Below, in pieces: positions 29,613 to 61,795 of a stretch of 64,000 nt of DNA. The stretch's first letter is position 1; each line of letters begins with the position of its first letter. The notes below the pieces were generated by a model. The model searched no databases and was not told where the DNA came from. It saw only the letters and a program-made list of their open reading frames with translations. The translations under genes were made by a program, and so were the position numbers. The DNA is from an uncultured bacterium (GTDB lineage: Bacteria; UBA8481): positions 64,001-128,000 of the forward strand of contig CAZCME010000009.1 in assembly GCA_964499705.1 (NCBI GenBank). The letters are read 5' to 3'.

Positions 29613-30689
29613 ATGTTCGATATCATTTCAACCAGCGGCGCGGCTCGCCGCGGCCGCATTCACACGCCGCACGGAATCATCGACACGCCCGCGTTCATGC
29701 CGGTCGGCACCGTCGGCTCCGTGAAGGCGATCGACGCGACGGATCTCCTCGCCTGCGGCGCGAACGTAATGCTCTCGAACACATACCATCTCCTGCTGCG
29801 TCCGGGCCCGGAGATGCTCGCGCGCAGGGGAGGACTGCACCGGTTCATACGATCGGACCTGCCGATTCTGACGGATTCCGGCGGATTCCAGGTGATGTCG
29901 CTCTCGGAGTTCAGGACGGTGACGGACGCGGGCGTGGAATTCAGGAGCCATCTCGACGGCGGCAAGGTCTGGCTTTCTCCCGAGGAGGCGCTCCGCGTGC
30001 AGGGGCTCATCGGTTCCGACATCCAGATGGTCCTCGATGTCTGCCCTCCTCATGACGCGACCGCCGCCGACGCGCGGCGAGCGACGGAGCTTTCGCATGC
30101 ATGGGCGGAGCGGTCCGTGAGCGCGCCGAGACCGGACGGCGTTCTGCGTTTCGGAATCGCGCAGGGCGGCATGGACGCGGAACTGCGCGCGGAGTCCACC
30201 CGATTCATCGGGGGTCTCGCCTTCGACGGGCTGGCGATCGGAGGCCTCTCCGTCGGAGAACCCGAGGAGACGATGTTCGCGATGCTCGACGCGACCATGC
30301 CGCACGCGCCCGTCGCGAAACCGAGGTATCTGATGGGCGTCGGCAAGCCCTCGCAGATCGTCCATGCTGTTTCGCTCGGCGTGGACCTCTTCGACTGCGT
30401 CCTGCCGACGCGCGTGGCGAGGCATGGCACGCTCTGGGCGCGCAAGGAGATCGTCCGGATCAATCGCGCGGAGTTCACGGAGGACGAGGCTCCCGTCGAC
30501 GCGGAATGTTCCTGCCTGGCCTGCGCGCGGTATTCGCGCGCGTACCTGCGGCACCTGTATCGCGTGGAGGATCCGCTCTATTACCGCCTCGCGAGCCTTC
30601 ACAATCTCACGCACATCCTCGATCTCATGAAACGGATCCGGCGGGCGATCGAGGAAGACCGATGGGGAGAATTGTCCCGGGAGTTCTGA
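29613..30689 (+). CDS. tgt: tRNA-guanine transglycosylase
   Basis: TPAFMPVGT, NTYHL, LTDSGGFQV, RYLMGVG, DCVLPTR, Zn site CxCxxC..H. Confidence 0.97.
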   Translation: MFDIISTSGAARRGRIHTPHGIIDTPAFMPVGTVGSVKAIDATDLLACGANVMLSNTYHLLLRPGPEMLARRGGLHRFIRSDLPILTDSGGFQVMSLSEFRTVTDAGVEFRSHLDGGKVWLSPEEALRVQGLIGSDIQMVLDVCPPHDATAADARRATELSHAWAERSVSAPRPDGVLRFGIAQGGMDAELRAESTRFIGGLAFDGLAIGGLSVGEPEETMFAMLDATMPHAPVAKPRYLMGVGKPSQIVHAVSLGVDLFDCVLPTRVARHGTLWARKEIVRINRAEFTEDEAPVDAECSCLACARYSRAYLRHLYRVEDPLYYRLASLHNLTHILDLMKRIRRAIEEDRWGELSREF

Positions 30690-31124: not shown

Positions 31125-32119
31125 GAGATCTCATCCCGGCCGCCGCCGCCGCGCTCATCGTTTCCGCCGGGTCCATTCCTCTGATTCTGAAGTTGTCGCA
31201 CGCGACGGGAATGATCGATCATCCGGCCGGCATCAAGAATCACGCGGCGCCGGTTCCCTACGGCGGCGGAGTCGCGATGTACCTGGGAACGATCGCGGCG
31301 CTCCTGGCGTATCACGGATTTACTTTCCCTCCGATCACGCTCGCTATCCTGACGGCCTCGACCGTGATCTTTCTCGGAGGGCTCTGGGACGACAGGCGTC
31401 CCCTCGGAGTGGCTCCGAAATTCGCCATCCAGATCGCGGCAGCCCTCACGCTTATCATCTGCGGAGTCCATCTCAGCATTCAAATCCTTCCGCGCTGGAT
31501 GAACCTCGGACTGACCATCTTCTGGCTGGTGGCGATGTCGAACGCCGTGAACATGATCGATATCATGGACGGCCTCGCGGGCGGCGTCACCGGGATCGCC
31601 GCGCTGACATTCGGACTGATCGGCCTGCTCTTCGGGGAAATGGACCTGGCGATTCTCTCCCTCGGTCTCGCGGCGTCGATCTTCGGTTTTCTCATCTATA
31701 ATCTCCAGCCGGCCCGGATCTTCATGGGAGACGCGGGCGCGCAATTCCTCGGCTTCACCCTCGGCGCTGCCGCCGTCCAGGGCGCGTACACGACATTCAA
31801 CAGCATCGCGCTCCTGGCGCCCGTCCTTATCCTGGGCTTGCCGCTGTATGACATGGCGCTGGTCTCCGTCATAAGACTGGAGCGTGGGCATTCTCCGTTT
31901 CGGGGGAGCGCGGATCACGTGGCGCTGAGGCTGCGCCGCATGGGATTATCCGTCGCGTGGACCGTGAGGATCTGCTATCTCGGAACCGCCATCCTCTGTG
32001 TCGCCGCAGTCGCCGCCACCATGGTATCGCTGGAATATGCATCCTGGATTTACGGAGCGACGTTCCTGGCCGCGATCCTCTGCGGTTTTCGTCTCGCCGA
32101 TGTGGAGCCCGCGAAATGA
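31121..32119 (+). CDS. MraY/WecA-family polyprenyl-phosphate sugar-1-phosphate transferase
   Basis: KNH..PVPYGGG, GLWDD, NAVNMIDIMDGL, IFMGDAGA; frame is open back to an ATA at 31121 that adds the expected first TM helix (the ORF track starts at TTG 31193). Confidence 0.85.
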   Translation: MRDLIPAAAAALIVSAGSIPLILKLSHATGMIDHPAGIKNHAAPVPYGGGVAMYLGTIAALLAYHGFTFPPITLAILTASTVIFLGGLWDDRRPLGVAPKFAIQIAAALTLIICGVHLSIQILPRWMNLGLTIFWLVAMSNAVNMIDIMDGLAGGVTGIAALTFGLIGLLFGEMDLAILSLGLAASIFGFLIYNLQPARIFMGDAGAQFLGFTLGAAAVQGAYTTFNSIALLAPVLILGLPLYDMALVSVIRLERGHSPFRGSADHVALRLRRMGLSVAWTVRICYLGTAILCVAAVAATMVSLEYASWIYGATFLAAILCGFRLADVEPAK

Positions 32120-32697
32120 TCATCGGGGTGACGGGATCGATCGGCGCCGGGAAAAGCTCGTTTGCGGCGGCTCTTGTCGAGGAAATCGGGAGAAGTCGTG
32201 GACCTGCGGTCCTTTTTGATGCCGACCGCGTGGCGAGGGAAGTTCTTCAGGAGCAATTACAGCTGATCGCGGCGGAATTCGGGAAGGATATCATCGGCGC
32301 GGATGGCGCGCCGGACAGGGCCAGGATCGCGGAGAGAGCGTTCCGAGACGAGGAATCCGCTGGGAAGTTGAACAGCATGATCCATCCGGGCGTTTACGCG
32401 AGGGCGCGGGTCGAGCTGGATGCTCTGCGCGACAGGAACGCGGCCGTCATACTCGATGTGCCGCTTCTTTTCGAGAGCGGAATGAACGAGCTGTGCGATG
32501 TCGTGTTCGCGGTCACGGCGGACGATGAGCGGAGGAGGAAGCGAGCGGAAAAATTCGGCGACGTGCGCGCGAGGGAGCGTTTTCAATGGAGCCAGGCGGC
32601 GAAAGCGGCGCGTGCGGACGTCGTCATCTCCAATGACGGATCGCTCGAAGAGCTTCGCGCGAAGATACCACAGGCGATCGAAAAAATATTCTCCTGA
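32116..32697 (+). CDS. coaE: dephospho-CoA kinase
   Basis: MIIGVTGSIGAGKS, DAD, IHP, DVPLLFE, ADVVISNDG; ATGA overlap with upstream gene. Confidence 0.93.
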   Translation: MIIGVTGSIGAGKSSFAAALVEEIGRSRGPAVLFDADRVAREVLQEQLQLIAAEFGKDIIGADGAPDRARIAERAFRDEESAGKLNSMIHPGVYARARVELDALRDRNAAVILDVPLLFESGMNELCDVVFAVTADDERRRKRAEKFGDVRARERFQWSQAAKAARADVVISNDGSLEELRAKIPQAIEKIFS

Positions 32698-50825: not shown

Positions 50826-51764
50826 TTGCGCTTCGCTTCCACACGAAGGGGCGAGACGCGTGCGCCATCACAATACTCTACGTGGCACTGCATACGTCTG
50901 CTTACATATTTGGTGATACTTGCCGTTTCCGCGGATGCGCGCGAAACGACGCACCGCGCCGATGGCGGCAGCATCGACGCTTTCACGGGTTTGCTCGGGT
51001 CGGGAGGCTGGATCGCTTCCGGACGATCCGTCACTCCGGATGCCATCGCCGATCTCTACGCGGGCCCTTCCGCGATTTCCGGCGCGGAGGGAACGACGCT
51101 CCTCACCTCCTACGGCGAACCCTATCGCCGGATCGACGGCTTCAACCTCGGATCCATTTCGCTCGTCACCGACAAATGGAAACTCGCTCGCATCGGCGTC
51201 TCGTATGACAGGCTCCAGATCGGAGGACTCCGAGAAGCGACCTCCGCCGGAGCACTGACCGGGCGGACATTCGACGTTTCGTATGATGCCGCACGGATTT
51301 CCGCGGCGAGGCGCTTCGGCCGGTTCGGTGCTGGCGCGTCGCTCAATTATTTCGGCGTCTCGATCCAGAATTCCTCCACATCACGTTTCGGTCTCGATCT
51401 CGGAGGCGACGTCGAGTTCGTCAATGCAAGGGTGCTTCTGAATGTTCGGAACATCTCCGGTGACCGCAACGACGCGGATCGACTGCCGATCACCGGCGAG
51501 ATCCGCGGCGAGTGGTCGCCGTACGCCCAGATGCATCTCGGCGTCGGAGGCACATGGCGAGAAGATGCCGTCGGCGAGTACAACGTCGGGATCCAGTACG
51601 ACATCTTCAAGATGATCTCGCTTCTTGCGGGATACCAGAGCGGACCGAAGGAATGGTCGGCAGGCGCAATCGGGCGATATCAGAAGATTAATTTGCAGTA
51701 TGCGATCTCTGCTCACCGCGAATTGGACTTCTCCCACACGATCTCGCTCGGAGTGAGCTTCTAA
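50826..51764 (+). CDS. divergent PorV/PorQ-like beta-barrel protein
   Basis: FGLDLGG, LNVRNI, LLAGY, LQYAISAHRELDFSHTISLGVSF C-terminus parallels the other PorV-like genes; start (TTG) uncertain. Confidence 0.65.
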   Translation: MRFASTRRGETRAPSQYSTWHCIRLLTYLVILAVSADARETTHRADGGSIDAFTGLLGSGGWIASGRSVTPDAIADLYAGPSAISGAEGTTLLTSYGEPYRRIDGFNLGSISLVTDKWKLARIGVSYDRLQIGGLREATSAGALTGRTFDVSYDAARISAARRFGRFGAGASLNYFGVSIQNSSTSRFGLDLGGDVEFVNARVLLNVRNISGDRNDADRLPITGEIRGEWSPYAQMHLGVGGTWREDAVGEYNVGIQYDIFKMISLLAGYQSGPKEWSAGAIGRYQKINLQYAISAHRELDFSHTISLGVSF

Positions 51765-54001
51765 TGAAGAAAACTCAATATTTAATATGTAATTTGAAAT
51801 ATGTAATTTGTAATGTGGTTACCCAATGCAAATTACAAATTACATATTTCAAATTACATATTAAATATTCTCTTTTCTTCGCTCTTCTCCTTCTCCGCCT
51901 CTCGCCTTCGTCCGCCGACGTCATCGACATCCGTGTCGACGAGTTCAAGTCGGATCGATCCGTCGCGATCACCGAGCTTTCGAACGGAAAGACCGTCGTT
52001 GGCATCCTCCGTCGCGAAATCGAGCGGACTATTTCCGCCGACACTGGGTTCGTGCTCTCGACGACCGCGAAGCTTTCGCTGAACGGGACGATCCGCGAGC
52101 TCACGATCACGGACCGGCGCGTCAACGCGCAAGGGTCGCCGCTGGAGCGACTGGTGAAGATACGCGTCGACTTCGCGGCGCTCGACGAGCTGACAGGGCG
52201 GGACGCGTCGGAACGGAACAACGTAATCGAGGAGCTGTCGTATTACACGGACACGTATTCGCTCGAGCAGGGCCTGACGGACAGGGAGGCGATAGAGGAG
52301 AAGTTGCTCATCGCGCTGGCGCGGCGAATCGTGAAGGAACTGAATGTCGACTACGCGAAACTGCCGACAACAGCCTCGGCGAAGATCGAATTGTCGCCCG
52401 AAGAGAAGAGCGAACTGGACGCGATCGGAGCGGTGCCCGCCGAAGGCGGCGAGACGAAGCCGCCGCACAAGTGGTTCTCGTGGAACCTCGGATTCGAGAA
52501 TGAGGCGATCACGGTCGTCGAGGGAACGTTGACGGCGGCAGGTCAGCCGAAGCGGACGACAAACAGGTTTTCGCAGAACACAACGTTGACGCTCGAGCCG
52601 ATCACGTGGGGAAACTCCGAGTTGAAAGGAGTGGCGATCTCGAAGTATCGACCGGAGGATCTGCGCGAGCTGACCCTGCAGAGAGGCGAACTCGAATACT
52701 CGATCAATCCGAACAACATCCTGAAGGCCGGAACTGTCACCGGATCGATCTCGAAATACATCTTCGACCAGACGCTGGCCGGGGCGACGTTCGAGCGGAA
52801 GATGGAGCTTGGGAAGACGAAGAACACGCTCTTTCTTATGGGCGGTCAGGATTTCCGCGCGGACGGTCTCGGCGACCTCCCGAGGGTCAACTACGGCGGA
52901 TTCTGGAAGACGGTCTTCGGCGAGTGGGGCGAGATCCAGATCTCGGCCGACGCGACCCGCGACAAGGAGACGTTCCTGAACACGTCCAATGTCCTGACAA
53001 ACGTCGACAATCGCCTCTTCGGCGCGATCGGGAAGCTGAAGACGCCGTTCCAGACGGAGATCACGGTCGACGTGAACCGATCCGAGCACAAAGAGCTGCG
53101 CGTGCCGGACACGACATTCGTCCGCGGCGACCTCCTCGACGCGAAGCTGACGCAGAAGATCAAGGATCTGACGTTCCGCGCCGAGTATTACAACGCGGAT
53201 CAACTTTTTCGAATAGTCTACGGCAGCGCGACGACGGACCGCGAGAAGTCGATGGCGGCGGTCGAACTCCCGGGCAAGTTCCTCTGGCTCGACTACACCG
53301 TGAAAGGCGACTGGACACGGACGAACAAGATCGCGGCGCGGACGCTTGTCGAGCAGCTCGGAACGGCGGGGCTGTCGCTTTCGTCCAAGCCGTTCGCGGA
53401 ATCGAGCAACTGGTTCCTGAAGAATCTTGCGTTCACCGACGACCTTTCTCTGCGCCGCACCTATGACGATGTTGTCGTTGCGGGGACGGCGCCGGGATCC
53501 AATCGTCAGAATTACAAGGTGACGTCGGGGGTCTCGAATACGCTCTGGGAGATCTGGAAGATCTCGGCGAGCTTCGACGTGGAGCGGGAGAAAGACCGCC
53601 TATTGAACACGCTACTGCAGACCGAGGAGTGGAAAGTCGAGAACACGCTGACGAAGAGCTTCTTCGATGACTGGCTGAAGGCCGAGCTGAAGGCGAACTA
53701 CCGCGCGAAGGATGGAGGAACGCAGCAGGATCGGTTCTCGACGTTCGGTGGAACTCTGTCGCACGAAGGGGAGAGGCTTTCTGCGCGGTTCGATTATCTC
53801 CGGGATCTGAAGCGCGGAACCGTGAAGGCGCAGAACACGACGAAGGATCGGTTCACGCTGGATCTGGGATATTCGAGCGAAAACGGACCGTTCAAGAACA
53901 CGATCTCGGTGCGGAGCGATTACGAGATCAACCAGTTCGACGCGAAGGCGAGCGACTATGACCGGTTGACGACGACGATCGGGCTGAAGGTGATCTTCTG
54001 A
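51764..54001 (+). CDS. secreted / outer-membrane protein, probable large beta-barrel, with a palindrome-encoded insert in its signal peptide
   Basis: TAATG coupling to upstream gene; h-region SLFFALLLLRLSPSSA; alternating beta-strand pattern and terminal aromatic (..TTIGLKVIF). Confidence 0.75.
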   Translation: MKKTQYLICNLKYVICNVVTQCKLQITYFKLHIKYSLFFALLLLRLSPSSADVIDIRVDEFKSDRSVAITELSNGKTVVGILRREIERTISADTGFVLSTTAKLSLNGTIRELTITDRRVNAQGSPLERLVKIRVDFAALDELTGRDASERNNVIEELSYYTDTYSLEQGLTDREAIEEKLLIALARRIVKELNVDYAKLPTTASAKIELSPEEKSELDAIGAVPAEGGETKPPHKWFSWNLGFENEAITVVEGTLTAAGQPKRTTNRFSQNTTLTLEPITWGNSELKGVAISKYRPEDLRELTLQRGELEYSINPNNILKAGTVTGSISKYIFDQTLAGATFERKMELGKTKNTLFLMGGQDFRADGLGDLPRVNYGGFWKTVFGEWGEIQISADATRDKETFLNTSNVLTNVDNRLFGAIGKLKTPFQTEITVDVNRSEHKELRVPDTTFVRGDLLDAKLTQKIKDLTFRAEYYNADQLFRIVYGSATTDREKSMAAVELPGKFLWLDYTVKGDWTRTNKIAARTLVEQLGTAGLSLSSKPFAESSNWFLKNLAFTDDLSLRRTYDDVVVAGTAPGSNRQNYKVTSGVSNTLWEIWKISASFDVEREKDRLLNTLLQTEEWKVENTLTKSFFDDWLKAELKANYRAKDGGTQQDRFSTFGGTLSHEGERLSARFDYLRDLKRGTVKAQNTTKDRFTLDLGYSSENGPFKNTISVRSDYEINQFDAKASDYDRLTTTIGLKVIF
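51777..51869. mobile_element. AT-rich 7-mer palindromic element, copy 1 (empty)
   Basis: Perfect 38-bp inverted repeat 51777-51814 / 51832-51869 with a 17-nt loop; 93 nt = 31 codons, in frame in the host N-terminus; mobility is inferred. Confidence 0.85.
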
Positions 54002-57000
54002 TGGAGCGAAGAGAATTTGTAATATGTAATTTGAAATATGAAATTTGTAATTTGTTGCGCGGCGGAGCATCAAAATTACAAATTACAAATTACAAATTAC
54101 ATATTAAATATTCTCTTTTCCTTCTCGCCTTCTTCATATTCGCTTCGCCGTCGCCTGCGTTCGCGGCCGACTTTTATGTGAATGATACGTCAACGGTCGG
54201 AGATTCGTTCTCATCTGCGGTCGGATCGGATGCGGGCACGGGCGCGAAAGCGTCGCCATTTCTCCGGATCGACTCCGCGATCGCGGCGGCGGCGGTCGGC
54301 GACACGATTCTGATCGACGCCGGGACATATTACGAGGGCGACACGATCACCATCACAAAGAATTCCCTGACGTTCGTCGGCGTCGATTCGACGCTGACGA
54401 TCATCGACTTTCTCTCGACATTATTCAGCGAGAATCGATGTTGGTTCGCGAGCGGGCGGCAGAACATCGAAATACGAAACCTCCGGCTTACGAACGGCCA
54501 CCGCGGCATCGAATGGAGTTCGACGGATACCGGAATGATTCGCGGAGTCCAGTTCGACGCGTTCCAGCATGGAATCCAGCTGACGTCGTGCAGGAATATC
54601 ACGATGAGAAATAATCGGAATTCCGGATTGTCGGGCCAAGGATATCGTCTGCTGACATCAAGCGGAAACTCGATTCTGTACAATCTCGTGGAAAACAACG
54701 TCGGCCGAGGTATCAACCTCAATGGTTCGGATACGAATATTGTGGTCGGAAATATCGTCCGTAGTCTGACGGCGTCGGGCATTGCGCTGGAAGCTTCCAG
54801 CACCAACAATCTCGTCAGCAACAATGTCAGTAAGGACATCGGATCCGGCGGCGCCTGCTTTTTCGTCACTTCGTCGAGCAACAATACGTTGGCGCAGAAC
54901 ACGGCCGATTCTGCGTCCGCAGGCTACTGCTTCGACATCGCCGGCACGTCGTCGGGCAACATGTTTCGCAGAAATGTTGTCCTGCCGTCGCCGGCGCGGC
55001 CGGACTCGGGTGTCCGCAACAGCACGGTGAACCAGGTCGACTTCGCGCGAAACTGGTTTGCGCGCGTGGACTCGGTGACCATTGGACAGATGATCGTTAA
55101 TACCGGTGGCGCCGGAGTCACGTACATCCCTTTCCGCCTCGGGATCGTTGATACCGCTGTCGGAGCGGACTCGATCGCGCCTCGCGCGCCGGATACCGTT
55201 TCGGTCTCGACGGTGGGCGATACGCGACGGGTCACTTGGGCCGCGTCCACGCTCGACGAGGAAGGCGGAGCGCAGACGGGCCTTGCGGGGTACAAGATCT
55301 ATCGCGCCGTGGCGGCCGACTCCAGCTTCTGGACGCTTATGGGGCAGGTCGGCGCGGGCACCTTGACGTTCAACGACTCATCCGTCGCCGCGACGGACAC
55401 GCGCTATTATCGCGTCACGGCGATCGACACGGCGACGGCATATCCGAACGAAGCCTTCTTCTCTGACTCCGTGGCGGCCAGCGTTGCCGTTGTCGCCAAT
55501 GTCGAGACGCCGCGGATTCGATTCCTCGCGACGACGCCGATCGACACGCGTTCCGCGTCGTTTTCGATCCGCGTCTCGATCGACAGCGCGACATCGGGCG
55601 ACTCGGTCCGGCTCTCCGTGAACGGTGTGCAGATTGAGACGCAGATGATGACTGCCGCCGCCGAGACGCGAACGTTCACCTTTGTCTGCGGAACGTATTT
55701 GAACACCGGCGTCATCTTCATCACGCGCCAGTCGACAGGCGACACCTTCGCGGATTCGAACCTCGTTCGCCTCGACACCGTTCCGCCGTCCGGTTCATCG
55801 ATCTCGATCTCCGACACGATCGCGTCGCGGCCGACGTTCCGGTGGACGGCCGCGACCGACTCAAACACGATTACTGCGTACAAGCTCATACTTCGATCCC
55901 TCGCGGACTCTTCCGTACTTCAAGCCTTCGACACTACCGCGCTCCAAGCCACGTGCACAACGCCTCTCGCGGTCGGCTTGTACCGCGTCGATCTCTCCTG
56001 CACGGACGCGGTCGGAAACACGAATTCGAATATGGATTCGAGGTCGTTCAATATTGTTCCGGACACGTCGCGCGTGCGAATCCAGGCGACGACGCCGGTT
56101 GATACGAGAGCGGCGACCTTCGCTCTGCGCGCCGCGATCGACAGCGCAGTCGCGGGAGACACGGTCCGGCTCATTGTCAACAATGCGGTGATTGAAACGC
56201 AGATCATGACCGGGACGAACGAGACGAGAACGTTCACGGTTCTCGGCTTGATCGTGTTGAACGACACGATTGCCGTTCAGGTGACGCGCCATGTCGGCGG
56301 CGCGGCGTTCTCGGATTCGATACTTGTTCGGCTCGATACAGCCGGTCCCGCCGGCTCGGTTCTTGCGATCTCCGACACCATTCGTACGACGCCGACCATT
56401 CGGTGGACTGCTGCGACTGACTCGAACGCCGTGAGCGGCTATCGTCTGACGCTCCGGTCCTTGGCGGACTCATCTGTACTACTTGTCTTCGACACGACGG
56501 CGCTACAGGCATCCTGCACCGTCGCGCTCGCTGTTGGCCTGTACCGCGCTGACCTTGCCTGCACCGATGGGCTGGGGAATACGAATTCGAACATCGACTC
56601 CCGTTCCTTCAGCGTCCTGCCCGATACGTCGCGAGTCCGGATCCAGGCGACGTCGCCTCTGGACACGAACGTCACGACATTCGCCTTTCGCGCGGCGATT
56701 GACTCGGCCGTTGCGGGCGACACAGTGCGACTCATCGTCAACAACGTGAACATCGAGACGCAGATCATGACCGGGACGAACGAGACGCGGACGTTCACTG
56801 TGGTCGGACTGATCGTCTATAACGACACCGTCGCGATCCAGGTGACGCGCCACATCGGCGGTTCCTCCTTCTCCGATTCGCTTCTCGTCCGCCTCGACAC
56901 GGTTCCGCCGACCGGATCGGTCATTGCGATCTCCGACACCTCCGCGCGCCTTCCGAGGATTCCGTGGTCGGCCGCGACGGATTCCGCCGGCGTTGCGCGA

Positions 57001-58815
57001 TACCGTCTTACGATCCGGTCGCTCTCGGACTCCGCGACGTTTCTCTCATACGAGACGACCGGCATCTCGGCGCTTGTCGACTCGGCGCTCGTCCTCGCCG
57101 TCTACCGCGCCGATCTCATCTGCACCGACGTCCTCGGAAACGTGAGCGGCGTCATCGACTCGAAGGTCTTCACGGTGACGGCCGACACGCCGACGTCGTT
57201 CACGTTGACCGACACGCAGACCTACATCGTCTCGAAGAACTCCTTCGCCGCCGACTCGTCGCACTTCATTGTGAAGGACACGAACGGAACGGGCGTCCCG
57301 AACTATCTCCCCGTCATCGCGATCGTCGCGCGTCCGGCCGGAGCGACGGGGGAAACGTATTCCGCCACGAAGACCGACTCGAACGGCCGATGCACAGTCA
57401 TCCTCAAGGCGGGCGACAAGGCCGGCGTCTATATCCTGAAGGTTGCCGTCCCCGGTGTCGGGACGATCTACCTCGCCTACGCGACGGACGAATACGACCT
57501 GCCGGCGACGACGTGGCGGATGATCACGCCGAACCGGACGCCGACGAACTCTGCAACCTCGTCCGCCATCTCGCTTTCGCCGCTCCGGATTCTCCAGTGG
57601 AATCCGCTCGCGGAAAACTCCGCGCTAAATCTCCTCTACGAGATTCCCTCGACCATCACGACCGGAAGAGGTTACTTCGTCTACCACACGTCCGCGGTGA
57701 GCTTCACCGTCTCCGGCACGATGCTCACCACCGACACGACGGACATCGCCCTGAAGACAGGTTGGAACATGATTGGGCCGCCCTACGCGTACCCGACGCG
57801 ATACAACGCCGCGCGCGTCCTCACGTCGGGCGGCTCCAATATTTCGCTCTCCGACGCCGAGGCGCAGGGGATACTCGTCAACAAGATCTACTGGTACACG
57901 AACAACGCCTACCAGTTCGGTCCGACCACGGCGATCACCGACCCGATTCTCTCGCCGTGGAACGGCGTCTGGATCTATGCCGCCGCGAACGCGACGCTCC
58001 GACTCTCGCCGTTCTTCTACTTTGGCGAGACGTCGACAACGACACTCGCGACGGCTCAGGCCGCGGGAGACCCGCAGGACTGGAAGATCAGGATCACGAC
58101 CTCGACGTCGGGCGGCGCGCAGACAACGAGCTTCCTCGGCGTCTCTCCGACGGCGACGGAGAACAAGGACTTCGCGCTCGATCTAGAGAATCCGCCTCCT
58201 GTTTCCGGCGGCATGGCGACGGGGCTCGGATCATCCGGTCTCTTCGCGCAGGATCTCCGCGCGCCGTTCACGACGGCGAACCTCTGGCAATTCGCCGTGA
58301 CGCCTACGGCGTCCGACACCGAGGTCACACTCGACTTCGCGGATCTGGCGAATCTTCCGACCGATTTCGTCGTGCGCCTTGTGGATTTGGGGACGAACGC
58401 TATCGTCGACGTGAAGGCCGCGCCGTCGTATCGCTATTCCGCTTCGGGCGCATCGGCGCGGAGTTTCCGGATCGCGGCGGGCACGGAGGCCGCCGTCCGA
58501 TCCATTCTCGCGCAACAGCTCGATCAGTCGCAGACGTTTGCCTACCCCAATCCCGGACCTGCGGCGGATGGGAATGTGCGGTTCAAATACAACGTCCCGG
58601 CGGGAGGGCAGTTGCGCATTCGCGTTTACGATTTGTCGGGGCGTCGGGTCATCGACCGGTATATCGATCTCAATACGTTCCCGACGGAATACGCGTGGAA
58701 CTGCCGGAACGAGCGTGGAGAACCGGTTTCGACGGGCGTGTATATCTACATTCTCGATATCGGCAACTCGACCGGGAATCGGCGATTCACGGACAAGATG
58801 GCGATTGTTCGATGA
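54001..58815 (+). CDS. large (1604 aa) secreted protein: beta-helix + Fn3 module, 3 internal repeats, C-terminal T9SS/FlgD-like domain
   Basis: TGATG coupling; FYVNDTSTVGDSFSSAVG module shared with the 39629 gene; C-terminus AYPNP..IRVYDLSGRRV..WNCRNERGEPVSTGVYIY..KMAIVR. Confidence 0.9.
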   Translation: MERREFVICNLKYEICNLLRGGASKLQITNYKLHIKYSLFLLAFFIFASPSPAFAADFYVNDTSTVGDSFSSAVGSDAGTGAKASPFLRIDSAIAAAAVGDTILIDAGTYYEGDTITITKNSLTFVGVDSTLTIIDFLSTLFSENRCWFASGRQNIEIRNLRLTNGHRGIEWSSTDTGMIRGVQFDAFQHGIQLTSCRNITMRNNRNSGLSGQGYRLLTSSGNSILYNLVENNVGRGINLNGSDTNIVVGNIVRSLTASGIALEASSTNNLVSNNVSKDIGSGGACFFVTSSSNNTLAQNTADSASAGYCFDIAGTSSGNMFRRNVVLPSPARPDSGVRNSTVNQVDFARNWFARVDSVTIGQMIVNTGGAGVTYIPFRLGIVDTAVGADSIAPRAPDTVSVSTVGDTRRVTWAASTLDEEGGAQTGLAGYKIYRAVAADSSFWTLMGQVGAGTLTFNDSSVAATDTRYYRVTAIDTATAYPNEAFFSDSVAASVAVVANVETPRIRFLATTPIDTRSASFSIRVSIDSATSGDSVRLSVNGVQIETQMMTAAAETRTFTFVCGTYLNTGVIFITRQSTGDTFADSNLVRLDTVPPSGSSISISDTIASRPTFRWTAATDSNTITAYKLILRSLADSSVLQAFDTTALQATCTTPLAVGLYRVDLSCTDAVGNTNSNMDSRSFNIVPDTSRVRIQATTPVDTRAATFALRAAIDSAVAGDTVRLIVNNAVIETQIMTGTNETRTFTVLGLIVLNDTIAVQVTRHVGGAAFSDSILVRLDTAGPAGSVLAISDTIRTTPTIRWTAATDSNAVSGYRLTLRSLADSSVLLVFDTTALQASCTVALAVGLYRADLACTDGLGNTNSNIDSRSFSVLPDTSRVRIQATSPLDTNVTTFAFRAAIDSAVAGDTVRLIVNNVNIETQIMTGTNETRTFTVVGLIVYNDTVAIQVTRHIGGSSFSDSLLVRLDTVPPTGSVIAISDTSARLPRIPWSAATDSAGVARYRLTIRSLSDSATFLSYETTGISALVDSALVLAVYRADLICTDVLGNVSGVIDSKVFTVTADTPTSFTLTDTQTYIVSKNSFAADSSHFIVKDTNGTGVPNYLPVIAIVARPAGATGETYSATKTDSNGRCTVILKAGDKAGVYILKVAVPGVGTIYLAYATDEYDLPATTWRMITPNRTPTNSATSSAISLSPLRILQWNPLAENSALNLLYEIPSTITTGRGYFVYHTSAVSFTVSGTMLTTDTTDIALKTGWNMIGPPYAYPTRYNAARVLTSGGSNISLSDAEAQGILVNKIYWYTNNAYQFGPTTAITDPILSPWNGVWIYAAANATLRLSPFFYFGETSTTTLATAQAAGDPQDWKIRITTSTSGGAQTTSFLGVSPTATENKDFALDLENPPPVSGGMATGLGSSGLFAQDLRAPFTTANLWQFAVTPTASDTEVTLDFADLANLPTDFVVRLVDLGTNAIVDVKAAPSYRYSASGASARSFRIAAGTEAAVRSILAQQLDQSQTFAYPNPGPAADGNVRFKYNVPAGGQLRIRVYDLSGRRVIDRYIDLNTFPTEYAWNCRNERGEPVSTGVYIYILDIGNSTGNRRFTDKMAIVR
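54009..54117. mobile_element. AT-rich 7-mer palindromic element, copy 2 (empty)
   Basis: 45-bp inverted repeat 54009-54053 / 54073-54117 with 5 mismatches and a 19-nt loop; in frame in the host N-terminus; mobility is inferred. Confidence 0.85.
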
Positions 58816-60635
58816 GAAAAGAATATTTAATATGTAATTTGAAATTTGTAATTTGTAATGTGCTCGCCACGCTCGCTTCTTGCCGTCATTTCCTCAATAT
58901 TACAAATTACAAATTACAAATTAGATATTACATATCATTTCTTTCCCCGAAGCGTACGAATTGTCGCTCCCATAATCCGACAAAGTTCATCGGTCTCTTT
59001 GAGCAAATCAGCCGCGTCCGCAAGACCGGCGCGCTTGAGAATCTTCAGCCATACCGCGCATTCCTGAAGCTCTTTTCGAACAATGGCGATCTTATGAGCA
59101 AAGTCCGCCTTGCTCTCGGCTCCACGCGCTTCGGCATAATTGGCGGCGGGAGAGGAGGACGAGCGGAGCAGTTGTCCCATGACATGTCGGCACTCCGGCC
59201 GTTTCGCCAGTCGCTCGCAGAATTTCAAAACATCCGCCGCATAGTCGATCAGTCGATCTTCCAATTCATCCGAAGTCATTCACAATCACCTCTCACCCCA
59301 CCAAATTACAAATTACAAATTACAAATTACATATTATACATTCTTCTCGCACTCCTCCCATGCACTGCCGCCGCCGCCCCTCTTTCCTCTCCGGCGACAG
59401 ACGATGACGCCGTTCTCCTTCAGCAGGCCGGATCGATGACCGACGGAAGCACACTCGGAGCCACCAGAAAGCCGGTCAGGATTCTCGGGACGATCAATCC
59501 TCCGGTGTCTGCCGTCGAGTGGCCGGGCAAGACCGGAGCGCCGACGACGGCCGTCACGTCGCTTCCCTTCGTCAAGGGCGCCGTGATGACGTCGTCCACG
59601 ACGACACCGGAGATCACATGGCCCGATTATCCCGGGGCGGTGTCATACAGGGTCTATATCGGTCGCAGCAATTTCGCGTCTTACAACCTCGTGCTCGCGC
59701 AGGTGGTGACGTCCGGAAGAAAGCTTCAGACGGCCACGGCTCAATTCACCAAGCCGCTCGTAAATGGGGTTCGCTACGTCTTCACCGTCTTTCCTCGAAA
59801 CGCGTTGGGCGCGTCGATGCTCAAATCCACGACCGGTCTTTCCGCATTCTTCAGCGTCGTTCTGCCAATCGCGGATACCGGAACCGCGGGGGAAATCGCC
59901 CTGACGAAATCCATGATCAACGATGTCTCTTCTTCAACTCTCGGCGACGTCGCGTGGTGGAACCGTGAAAACACGCCGCTCGGGACGATCACATGGAAAG
60001 GAATACTCACCTCATCGTCCACCGAGAAGGTCACCTCGGCGTCTTTGATTTTTAACAGCACCGAGTCCGTCGCGCTTACGCTTGACGCGTCCGGCGGCTT
60101 CACGCACGAGCGCTTGATGAAGGTCGATGCGATCTTCACCCCAATGATCCGCGTCGTGACGTCGAACGGCCGCACCGTCGATTTTTCTCCTGGCCCGAAG
60201 ACGCTCAACTACCGCCACATGACGCAGACGGAGGAGATCCGCGAAGTGCTCACGAAGCTCGCCGACGCATACCGCGCGAACGATCGCGTCTCGCTCTTGA
60301 AGCTTATCGACAGGGATTACATCTCCTCCGCGACGGGCTTCAGGGATTATCAGGAATTGGACAACTCGCTCCGCGATCACTTCAACGTCACGACGACGTC
60401 GACCTGCCGATGGAATTCGGAGGACATCAGGATCATCACGCCTGCAAAGCGCCTCGAAGTCACGTTCCAGTGGCGGAGAAATATCAACTACTCGACGCTC
60501 AACACGACGCGCGACTATCAGGCGACCGCGAGGCTTGATATTCGGAAGATCGACGGAGTCTGGCTCATTCACGAGGATTTTGGCCGGACGATCTTCGCGA
60601 CCGACCTCGGGCCCGTGCCCGCGCCGCCGCAATGA
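58812..60635 (+). CDS. secreted hypothetical protein whose signal-peptide region is interrupted in frame by the filled palindromic element
   Basis: ATGA-coupled start MRKEYLICNLKFVICN; frame open across the antisense gene to h-region ILYILLALLPCTAAA at about 59330; downstream Fn3-like and NTF2-like regions. Confidence 0.7.
   Translation: MRKEYLICNLKFVICNVLATLASCRHFLNITNYKLQIRYYISFLSPKRTNCRSHNPTKFIGLFEQISRVRKTGALENLQPYRAFLKLFSNNGDLMSKVRLALGSTRFGIIGGGRGGRAEQLSHDMSALRPFRQSLAEFQNIRRIVDQSIFQFIRSHSQSPLTPPNYKLQITNYILYILLALLPCTAAAAPLSSPATDDDAVLLQQAGSMTDGSTLGATRKPVRILGTINPPVSAVEWPGKTGAPTTAVTSLPFVKGAVMTSSTTTPEITWPDYPGAVSYRVYIGRSNFASYNLVLAQVVTSGRKLQTATAQFTKPLVNGVRYVFTVFPRNALGASMLKSTTGLSAFFSVVLPIADTGTAGEIALTKSMINDVSSSTLGDVAWWNRENTPLGTITWKGILTSSSTEKVTSASLIFNSTESVALTLDASGGFTHERLMKVDAIFTPMIRVVTSNGRTVDFSPGPKTLNYRHMTQTEEIREVLTKLADAYRANDRVSLLKLIDRDYISSATGFRDYQELDNSLRDHFNVTTTSTCRWNSEDIRIITPAKRLEVTFQWRRNINYSTLNTTRDYQATARLDIRKIDGVWLIHEDFGRTIFATDLGPVPAPPQ
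58819..59345. mobile_element. AT-rich 7-mer palindromic element, copy 3 (filled with four-helix-bundle gene)
   Basis: Left arm 58819-58859 is complementary to both 58899-58935 (34/37) and 59305-59345 (38/41); the two right arms flank the antisense gene as direct repeats; mobility is inferred. Confidence 0.85.
58935..59279 (-). CDS. four helix bundle protein (23S rRNA intervening-sequence protein / bAvd-like family)
   Basis: LEDRLIDYA..V..FC..L, QLLRSSSSPAANYAEARGAESKADFAHKIAIVRKELQECAVWLKIL; SD GAGGTGA 6 nt upstream of the ATG. Confidence 0.92.
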   Translation of the reverse strand: MTSDELEDRLIDYAADVLKFCERLAKRPECRHVMGQLLRSSSSPAANYAEARGAESKADFAHKIAIVRKELQECAVWLKILKRAGLADAADLLKETDELCRIMGATIRTLRGKK

Positions 60636-61795
60636 CCCTCCGGATTCCAGCGCGCCGTGGCGCGGCGAAACGCGCCATCGTGGCGAAATCACGTGGCGGT
60701 CCATTGAATTTCCAGTCTCTCGTCGCCGCGATCGGCGAGATTGACTGCGCCCTTGCGACGCAGGCCGGAAGGGCGGTAAACGTAAGCCTCACGATGAGGA
60801 ACTGGATGATCGGCTGTTTCATCGCTGAATACGAACTGAACGGCGCCGACCGGGCGCGCTATGGCGAGAGGTTGCTTGCCGTGCTCGCGGTCCGGCTGGC
60901 GCGACTGCATGTCAGCAACAGCAGTCGCCGCCAGCTTTATGACTATCTCCGGTTCTATCGCACATATCCGCGAATTGTGCGTACACTGTCGGCACAATTC
61001 AGATCGCTTTTGCCGCCGAAGACGCTGGCGCGAAAAGTGCCGACACCGTCGGCACAATCTTCCTATGCAGGCGCCGCGCTTCTCGGTTCGCTGTCCTACA
61101 GCATGTTTCGCCTCCTTGTCGAACTGGACGACGACGAGCGACGGGCTTTCTACGAGCACGAATGCATCAGCGGCGGGTGGTCGGTGCGCGAACTCCGGCG
61201 ACAGATCGCGTCTCTCTATTTCGAACGATCGGGATTATCGACAAACCGGAAAAAACTGGCCGCCATGATGCGACAAAAAGCCGAGCGAGCGGCGCCGCGT
61301 CTCGATATCCGCGATCCGTACGTCTTCGAGTTTCTCGGCTTGAAACCGCGCGAAGTTATGGGCGAGTCTCATCTCGAGGACAGACTGCTTGATCGCCTGC
61401 ACGGTTTCCTGATGGAACTCGGACAGGGATTCTGTTTCGAAGCCCGGCAGAAGAGGATACTGATCGGCGAATCGCACGGGTTCGTCGATCTCGTCTTCTA
61501 CCACCGGATCCTGAAGTGTCATGTGCTCATCGAACTCAAGCTGAAGGAATTCGGTCATGAGGCCGTAAGTCAGCTCAATACGTACGTCACGTGGTATCGA
61601 CGGAACATGATGACGCGCGGAGACAATCCGCCCGTCGGGATTCTTCTCTGCGCGAAGAAGGATGAGTCGCTTGTCGAATACGCCTGCGCCGGCCTGGACA
61701 ACAAGCTCTTTGTCTCCAAATACCAGCTCCACCTTCCCAAGCGCGATCAGCTTCGCAGGGAAATGGAACGTGCGATGCGGATCCGCGAATCATGA
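60632..61795 (+). CDS. YhcG/DUF1016 family PD-(D/E)XK nuclease-domain protein
   Basis: AVNVSLTMRNWMIG..I.EYE..G..RA.YG, WSVRELRRQI.S..FER, IRDPYVFEFLGL, ELGQGFCFEARQKRI, VDLVFYHRILKCHVLIELK, DNPPVGILLC. Confidence 0.93.
   Translation: MTLRIPARRGAAKRAIVAKSRGGPLNFQSLVAAIGEIDCALATQAGRAVNVSLTMRNWMIGCFIAEYELNGADRARYGERLLAVLAVRLARLHVSNSSRRQLYDYLRFYRTYPRIVRTLSAQFRSLLPPKTLARKVPTPSAQSSYAGAALLGSLSYSMFRLLVELDDDERRAFYEHECISGGWSVRELRRQIASLYFERSGLSTNRKKLAAMMRQKAERAAPRLDIRDPYVFEFLGLKPREVMGESHLEDRLLDRLHGFLMELGQGFCFEARQKRILIGESHGFVDLVFYHRILKCHVLIELKLKEFGHEAVSQLNTYVTWYRRNMMTRGDNPPVGILLCAKKDESLVEYACAGLDNKLFVSKYQLHLPKRDQLRREMERAMRIRES

Follow-up and report, generated by a model that had tools for sequence, protein, structure and literature searches.

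The stretch of DNA analysed here (hereafter the window) is 64,000 nucleotides (nt) long and comes from the genome of an uncultured bacterium (G000:C9:64001-128000; contig CAZCME010000009.1), which comprises 4.67 Mb in 45 contigs with a G+C content of 61%. Three consecutive, coupled genes within it each carry, close behind the start codon, an AT-rich palindrome (copies 1-3) assembled from TTTGTAA/TTACAAA units with a period of 7 nt, and the third palindrome is accompanied by a small gene of a four-helix-bundle family (Table 1). All three start 2-10 nt past an ATG that overlaps the stop codon of the preceding gene (TAATG, TGATG, and ATGA), and comparison of the copies shows arms that are alike and loops that are unrelated, as a first, sequence-only reading of the window had described. 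The repeat signal is strong: the 14-mer AATTACAAATTACA, with up to two mismatches allowed, has 27 matches in the window as compared with 0.02 in shuffled sequences, and all 27 fall within four intervals (51781-51865, 54018-54108, 58826-58932, and 59304-59338). Folded as RNA, copies 1, 2, and 3 reach -52.9, -46.0, and -38.8 kcal/mol (z of -15.4, -8.6, and -7.6, respectively), and none of 200 shuffles folds as stably. The matches, the folds, and the paired arms together establish that the AT-rich inverted repeats behind the starts of these genes are real.

The translations that had been proposed for the arms, ICNLK(Y/F)xICN and KLQITNYKL(H/Q)IKY, are correct at the level of translated codons. 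The same holds for the proposal that gene 1 would begin with a textbook signal peptide once its hairpin is taken out: removal of the 93 nt 51777-51869 (AATATT...AATATT) leaves ATG AAG AAA ACT CCT CTT TTC..., which reads MKKTPLFFALLLLRLSPSSA. A search of 51000-60000 against Rfam returned no family above threshold, with sub-threshold matches to miRNA-like hairpins only and no rRNA match. In addition, a sigma-70 scan gave no promoter-like site, and no terminator-like site was found at the hairpins.

Copies 1-3 belong to a repeat family, here named family H, with eight hairpins and two single-arm arrays in the genome; of the 15 places in the genome where at least 27 of 30 nt are A or T, seven belong to it. 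The eight hairpins share the ends (A)ATATTTAAT / ATTAAATAT(T), and copy 3 carries a gene, so that the earlier claim of a genuine repeat family with empty and gene-bearing forms holds. Family H is itself one of about nine. Hairpins with arms of 22 nt or more were sought across the genome, and 162 were found, in about nine families with arms made of tandem 7-8-nt units; removal of loops longer than 170 nt and of overlapping duplicates, and addition of three weaker family H copies, gave a working set of 145, of which 130 were assigned to a family. By a crude gene prediction of our own, in which 3409 genes take up 92% of the genome, 92 of the 145 are intergenic. By the same prediction, the position that marks the hairpins is directly behind a stop codon: 77 of the 130 family hairpins start no more than 15 nt behind the stop of a gene pointing at them, as compared with 12.4% of 3000 random intergenic windows, and all eight family H hairpins lie behind a stop codon, with gaps of -7 to 13 nt.

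The defining niche of the hairpins is thus the stop codon and not the signal peptide, and where the next ATG overlaps that stop, the hairpin therefore falls in the N-terminal (n-) region of a signal peptide. The sequence-only reading had cast the signal peptide as a safe harbour for these elements. This is right in so far as six family H hairpins lie within the first ~40 codons of genes for exported proteins, whereas the other two are intergenic and all eight stay within 13 nt of a stop. As a general position for such repeats it fails, since H is one family among about nine and most copies of the whole set are intergenic.

Table 1. Features of the locus and the other family H elements of the genome; entries prefixed by C lie on other contigs, all other positions are those of the window
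Feature	Position	Strand	Description
TAATG junction	51762..51766	+	stop of the upstream gene (50826-51764) overlaps the ATG of gene 1
Gene 1	51764..54001	+	745 aa; no Pfam family; h/c-region LFFALLLLRLSPSSA behind the hairpin; C-terminus ...GLKVIF
Hairpin copy 1	51766..51880	+	arms 51766-51817 / 51829-51880 (52 nt, 92% complementary); AT-rich core 51777-51869 (93 nt); codons 2-39 of gene 1, in frame
TGATG junction	53999..54003	+	stop of gene 1 overlaps the ATG of gene 2
Gene 2	54001..58815	+	1604 aa; right-handed beta-helix/NosD region
Hairpin copy 2	54009..54117	+	arms 54009-54053 / 54073-54117 (45 nt, 89% complementary); in frame in gene 2, before h-region LFLLAFFIFASPSPAFA
ATGA junction	58812..58815	+	ATG of gene 3 (58812) overlaps the stop of gene 2
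Hairpin copy 3a	58818..58940	+	left arm 58818-58859, 39-nt GC-rich loop, inner right arm (Ra) 58899-58940 (42 nt, 88% complementary)
Cargo gene	58935..59279	-	114 aa, four-helix-bundle family; antisense to the host operon; stop abuts Ra
Outer right arm (Rb)	59302..59351	+	pairs with the left arm (58813-62 / 59302-51, 50 nt, 88%), 439 nt separating the arms; cargo enclosed
Gene 3 body	59337..60635	+	opens with h-region YILLALLPCTAAAAP; frame open back to ATG 58812 through the cargo antisense
Family H hairpin	C14 ~29804-29901		outside the window
Family H hairpin	C14 ~32053-32153		outside the window
Family H hairpin	C22 79167-79267		outside the window
Family H hairpin	C11 59092-59171		outside the window
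Family H hairpin	C6 ~152515-152640		outside the window
Family H single-arm array	C3 115589-115630		behind a tRNA-like sequence
Family H single-arm array	C25 31741-31775		in frame, N-terminus of an exported protein

The copies that lie inside genes are kept translatable, in support of the sequence-only reading. In a pure TTTGTAA array, no frame runs for three units without a TAA. Of the six in-gene family H copies, each can be read through on the gene strand in exactly one frame, that of the gene itself. By comparison, none of the 12 frames of the two intergenic copies is open, and only 2 of 138 are open in 23 TTTGTAA/TTACAAA hairpins from other genomes. All six in-gene copies carry TGT AAT TTG AAA at the unit where TAA would fall, and they are an open reading frame (ORF)-compatible variant of the family. 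No canonical start codon lies between their right arm and the hydrophobic (h-) region. Hairpins of other families supply the hydrophobic core of the signal peptide through their own right arm, for example ...FVLLRVFVSSWLFAVA in a PorV-like protein. When residues 1-40 of gene 1 were used as a query, only the window's own protein was found, a result of little weight given that gene callers avoid such N-termini. As a separate observation, two of the loci from other genomes that contain the 21-mer (AATTACA)3 (L073 and L114) have a single right-arm array that is read as KLQITNYK(L/F)QI directly after the start codon and before a hydrophobic stretch.

No orthologue of gene 1 was found in four other genomes of the phylum, nor any relative in metagenome contigs, and paralogues and database proteins were used in place of orthologues. 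Relatives free of the insert do exist, in line with the sequence-only reading: signal peptides are plain in the gene 1 homologues P0003 and P0005, which come from other organisms (the latter begins MRFFVLVFLAAGLANA|EPVAIRVDEFK), and 11 of 15 PorV-like paralogues have no hairpin, the other four having one in frame. Moreover, the occupant of the slot changes. The operon has two paralogous copies in the genome, one on C14 (58% identity) with AT-rich hairpins in both slots, and a closer one, split between C35 and C12 (82-84% identity), with a CAGGAT-type and an ACACGAA-type hairpin in the same two slots, both in frame. Likewise, two PorV-like paralogues with 86% identity, on C22 and C19, carry hairpins of the AT-rich and the ACACGAA family, respectively. 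In DNA alignments (W1/C35 and C22/C19), homology stops 1-3 codons past the overlapping start and resumes at the mature N-terminus, and the exchanged block is therefore the whole signal peptide. At least ten further copies from other families share the slot behind an overlapping stop/start.

Gene callers deal poorly with these N-termini. Three of seven database entries for gene 1 relatives are truncated at or behind the hairpin, and the public calls P0001, P0002, and P0004, which represent the window gene and two paralogues, start inside or behind it, with P0002 and P0004 losing the signal peptide. Genes of this kind seem to be misannotated systematically, and with N-termini truncated in this way, secretome predictions for uncultured phyla will miss them.

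Copy 3 was first read as a palindrome that encloses a four-helix-bundle gene. The identity of the gene stands, with matches to PF05635 (54.6 bits, cut-off 33.8; profile positions 10-104 of 106) and TIGR02436 (82.8 bits, cut-off 24) and with PDB 2rld_A (E 7e-9) as the nearest solved relative by sequence. The simple two-arm layout does not, since there are three arms: the left arm and Ra form a hairpin, which is followed by the gene and then by Rb, and the cargo lies between two directly oriented right-arm arrays. When the whole 556-nt stretch is folded, the left arm pairs with Rb. The ATG of the cargo gene is preceded by an AG-rich 22-nt spacer (59280-59301). Such an arrangement may be the product of a cargo-plus-arm unit that recombined into an empty hairpin at its right arm. 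The cargo form is seen in two studies: contigs of the DNA runs X1 and X2, which share a study, extend into the cargo, and X4 reaches into it by 34 nt.

An open frame through the antisense cargo from the overlapping ATG of gene 3 does not go beyond chance: among random 345-nt gene windows, 62% have an open codon-aligned antisense frame, with 30% for low-GC genes. The proposition that copy 3 must be read through was dropped for the same reason. No ATG, GTG, or TTG lies between Rb and the h-region of gene 3, and the paralogues of gene 3 have other N-termini and are uninformative on its start. Gene 3 may carry a ~175-residue extension, may start internally, or may not be produced at all.

The association of four-helix genes with inverted arrays of short units, also part of the sequence-only reading, extends beyond copy 3. 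In this genome, all three PF05635 genes are bracketed by inverted arrays of 39-50 nt that lie ~385-440 nt apart, and in other genomes 12 of 28 PF05635 loci reach the bracket-score threshold versus 1 of 100 shifted control positions. A second protein family behaves similarly: both PF13366 (GxxExxY) genes of the genome are bracketed by arms of 27-31 nt, 377-386 nt apart, and elsewhere 8 of 22 PF13366 loci reach the threshold versus none of 77 controls. Most bracketing arms in other genomes are visibly made of short tandem units. Around the PF05635 and PF13366 genes here stand five distinct arm families, all of which also occur as empty copies. In addition, inverted half-sites of a sixth family, family D, lie on either side of a Y1_Tnp gene (C17:17437-17763).

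The reading that we favour, and consider reasonably probable, is that these elements are stop-proximal hairpins resembling repetitive extragenic palindromic (REP) sequences, and that they are translated as a signal-peptide extension where the next ATG overlaps the stop. Family H is one of about nine such REP-like families with arms of tandem 7-8-nt units, and in the secretion-type operons here the overlapping ATG places its hairpins in codons 2-40 of the next gene. Ribosomes starting at that ATG would read through the hairpin and produce an n-region ~30 residues longer, which would be cut off on export; insertions may be tolerated there because this segment of the n-region is presumably dispensable. 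Turnover is evident in the paralogues: those 82-86% identical have another family in the same slot, and more distant ones have no hairpin. As a stop-proximal REP, the hairpin may slow the terminating ribosome or protect the upstream mRNA, and it may make downstream translation dependent on coupling. The enclosed small protein, which is of the four-helix-bundle type or the GxxExxY nuclease-fold type depending on the family, may be the family's own nucleic-acid-handling factor, related to it as REP-associated tyrosine transposases (RAYTs) are to REPs. It is by analogy that the four-helix protein appears as a cognate factor and the element as mobile.

Several observations weigh against this reading. 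Family C breaks the stop-codon rule, with 1 of 14 copies within 30 nt. The change that avoids TAA is uncompensated in the right arm in four of the six in-gene copies, giving a weaker stem, and hairpin stability is therefore not strongly kept there. The in-gene copies amount to at most ~4 independent events, because they share one variant and include two pairs in paralogous genes. Translation of the hairpins and their removal with the signal peptide are deduced from sequence, and read-through of the cargo antisense would be expected by chance in roughly 10-20% of cases. No target-site duplication was recognised by eye in the flanks of the family H hairpins, and no empty allele of copy 3 was found in the contigs of four DNA runs, which break at repeats; mobility is therefore unproven. 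Finally, six protein-bearing copies in six families have P = 0.028 under random placement and the five genes P = 0.10, so that a rule of one protein gene per family, being weak and post hoc, is only suggestive. The idea of target-site duplications was accordingly dropped; the flanks are complementary (GAAGAAAA / TTTTCTTC) and not direct repeats. No transposase is present in or beside the gene-bearing copy 3.

One may argue that the hairpins are not selfish repeats but selected regulatory elements that tune expression at coupled junctions, acting as an RNase III site, an attenuator, or an enforcer of coupling, and that the coding of an n-region is a side effect. An ATG at the foot of very stable stems in copies 1-3, a U/C-rich tract behind the right arm, and a slot that stays occupied in paralogues though the family changes would all fit such a role, and there are models for it in stop-proximal REPs, which regulate translation according to the parts of PMC12306157 at hand, and in the hairpin-bounded 23S rRNA intervening sequence that RNase III excises (PMC4990558, in part). 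We nonetheless regard it as unlikely, if worth keeping in mind, since 11 of the 15 PorV-like paralogues share the same overlapping junction and do without a hairpin, the stems are weakened in four of six in-gene copies, the same families are scattered behind many unrelated genes, and neither an Rfam family at threshold nor a terminator-like site marks the hairpins. A different kind of control would be phase variation: 7 is not a multiple of 3, and slippage by one unit could toggle secreted or outer-membrane proteins. The arrays do lie in the 5' coding region of genes for surface or secreted proteins, right arms hold three to five near-perfect units, and strains differ in how many heptamers a 23S rRNA intervening sequence contains (PMC4990558, in part). 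We find this improbable, as the arrays are short, the left arms are broken up by variant units, two of the eight family H hairpins and most copies of other families are intergenic, and no length variant occurs in the four contig runs, whose contigs break at repeats.

A further alternative concerns translation itself. The hairpins would go untranslated if the real starts lay at or after the right arm (an in-frame ATT AAA TAT is present in four of six copies) or at a GTG or TTG of the loop, or if the hairpin were removed from the RNA. ATT AAA TAT followed by the h-region would also read as a textbook signal peptide, and the public calls P0001, P0002, and P0004 place their starts accordingly. What makes this very improbable is the left arm, which is stop-free in the gene frame in all six copies: a start at or after the loop puts no constraint on it and so fails to explain why it is kept open, and an ATT start after the right arm was dropped on these grounds. 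Also, in family B it is the right arm that supplies the h-region, and for the removal variant no RNA ligation is known to follow RNase III cutting.

Among the known systems closest to these elements, REPs resemble them in being dispersed short palindromes, mostly extragenic, about half of which lie no more than 15 nt behind a stop (77 of 130 here). RAYTs mobilise REPs, and family D resembles such REP-RAYT pairs in that inverted copies of the family's repeat lie on both sides of its Y1_Tnp gene. This applies to family D only: the flanked gene of family H is PF05635 and not Y1_Tnp, and five families here enclose a four-helix-bundle or GxxExxY gene rather than a Y1 transposase. Of 496 REPs in E. 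coli, 260 are located no more than 15 nt from a stop and stall ribosomes (Liang et al. 2015, as reported in the available part of PMC12306157). The hairpins described here differ from REPs in having arms of tandem 7-8-nt units and a variable loop, and in occurring also in frame inside genes. Miniature inverted-repeat transposable elements likewise have terminal inverted repeats and multiple copies, but family H, with its eight hairpins, has no recognised target-site duplication and no parent element with a transposase.

The gene-bearing form recalls the intervening sequences of 23S rRNA. In Coxiella burnetii, the intervening sequence in helix 45 has a 28-bp stem and, internally, tandem heptamers (GACAGAT) that vary in number, and it is excised by RNase III, and a mobile-element origin of such sequences was proposed as early as 1993 (PMC4990558 and work cited therein, in part). 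As far as these partial sources go, ORF-bearing intervening sequences of Coxiella, Leptospira, and others share with copy 3 a long terminal stem around an ORF of the PF05635 family, and ORF-less forms exist as well. In contrast, copy 3 (58812-59351) sits at the stop/start junction of a protein operon and not in rRNA, and its ORF is antisense to the host transcript whereas the Coxiella ORF is sense. PF05635 has been described as resembling Avd of diversity-generating retroelements (PMC10053308, in part). For PF05635 cassettes outside rRNA, no description was found in the literature, supplements not covered, and the related work found concerns rRNA insertions only; the literature found on GxxExxY is sparse, and the study that was checked does not treat repeats.

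For repeats read as protein there is partial precedent in print. Rickettsia palindromic elements (Ogata 2000, cited in PMC2759123) and enterobacterial RU-1/RU-2 are palindromic repeats fused in frame to genes (PMC2759123, in part); the Rickettsia analogy is one of function only. In the portions of these sources at hand, the known elements are not heptamer arrays and carry no gene, and the Yersinia case is a single one as against six copies of one family here. Heptamer arrays are also on record, namely GGGAATC in Xanthomonas and GGGGA(C/T)T in Nostoc, 89-93% of them intergenic and with mean distances of 28 nt from the preceding ORF and 160 nt to the following one (PMC4692102, in part), as well as TAACTGA repeats (PMC4679880, in part). 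Like these heptameric simple sequence repeats, family H has tandem 7-nt units close behind an upstream ORF (gap of -7 to 13 nt). Unlike it, the Xanthomonas and Nostoc arrays are described as direct, G-quadruplex-forming arrays and not as paired inverted ones, and the part of PMC4692102 at hand mentions neither gene cargo nor signal-peptide copies.

These comparisons allow a broader proposal, which we put forward tentatively and with more doubt than conviction. Each hairpin family may be a REPtron-like system with one gene-bearing master, in which the enclosed RAYT, GxxExxY PD-(D/E)XK-fold, or four-helix protein recognises its own arms and spreads them; rRNA intervening sequences would be copies that landed in rRNA, and ORF-compatible derivatives would colonise, replace, and sometimes supply signal peptides where a gene's start overlaps the stop before it. 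If correct, it would give a function to the orphan families PF05635 and TIGR04256 and would explain the excess of heptamer repeats in bacteria. Even the narrower claim that enclosed proteins are cognate factors of their own arms would, if true, define a second kind of REP-RAYT-like system. The locus also ties to one object three matters of wider interest, among them the unexplained excess of heptamer repeats in bacterial genomes and the ability of repeat DNA to become protein.

Several further loci in this and other genomes are worth recording. Outside the window, C17:17077-17858 holds a 240-aa Y1_Tnp (IS200-like) gene between inverted half-sites of a perfect-palindrome family (GGGGACAGTATAC) that has 47 half-sites genome-wide, the layout of a classic REP-RAYT unit, and a second Y1-like gene (C13:80706-81038) lies ~400 nt from a hairpin of the largest family. 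The two GxxExxY (PF13366/TIGR04256) genes are located at C4:198115-198554 and C8:30713-31151, each inside a hairpin of a different family, and in six of the eight positive GxxExxY loci elsewhere the arms were read by eye as ACCAC.../...CAC units, like family B. At C3:115257-115630, a CAGGAT-family hairpin, a tRNA-like sequence (tRNA-Lys by eye), and a single-arm AATTACA array stand in a row before a small gene. At least 119 stretches, spread over many phyla, contain the exact 21-mer (AATTACA)3, with Acidobacteriota, Bacteroidota, Cyanobacteria, Patescibacteria, and Planctomycetes among the 80 loci listed. Such arrays were rejected as markers of cargo in other phyla, as a search with a home-made hidden Markov model built from 17 seeds found a PF05635-like ORF in 3 of the 80 listed loci, adjacent to the array in one. 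In a genome of the same family, the end of a contig with 39% G+C (L006, G001:C66:1-150) has a long TTTCAATTTGCAC-type array running into TTTGTAA units.

Back in the window, a gene for a YhcG/DUF1016 PD-(D/E)XK nuclease (60632-61795) begins on the stop codon of gene 3. The C-terminal tail of gene 2 appears, by eye and with no family search behind it, to be of the type IX secretion style. Gene 2 may also vary in length: contigs of two runs from different studies link 55590 to 56731 via 21 other letters, a join that suggests a variant without one of its ~1.1-kb internal repeats.

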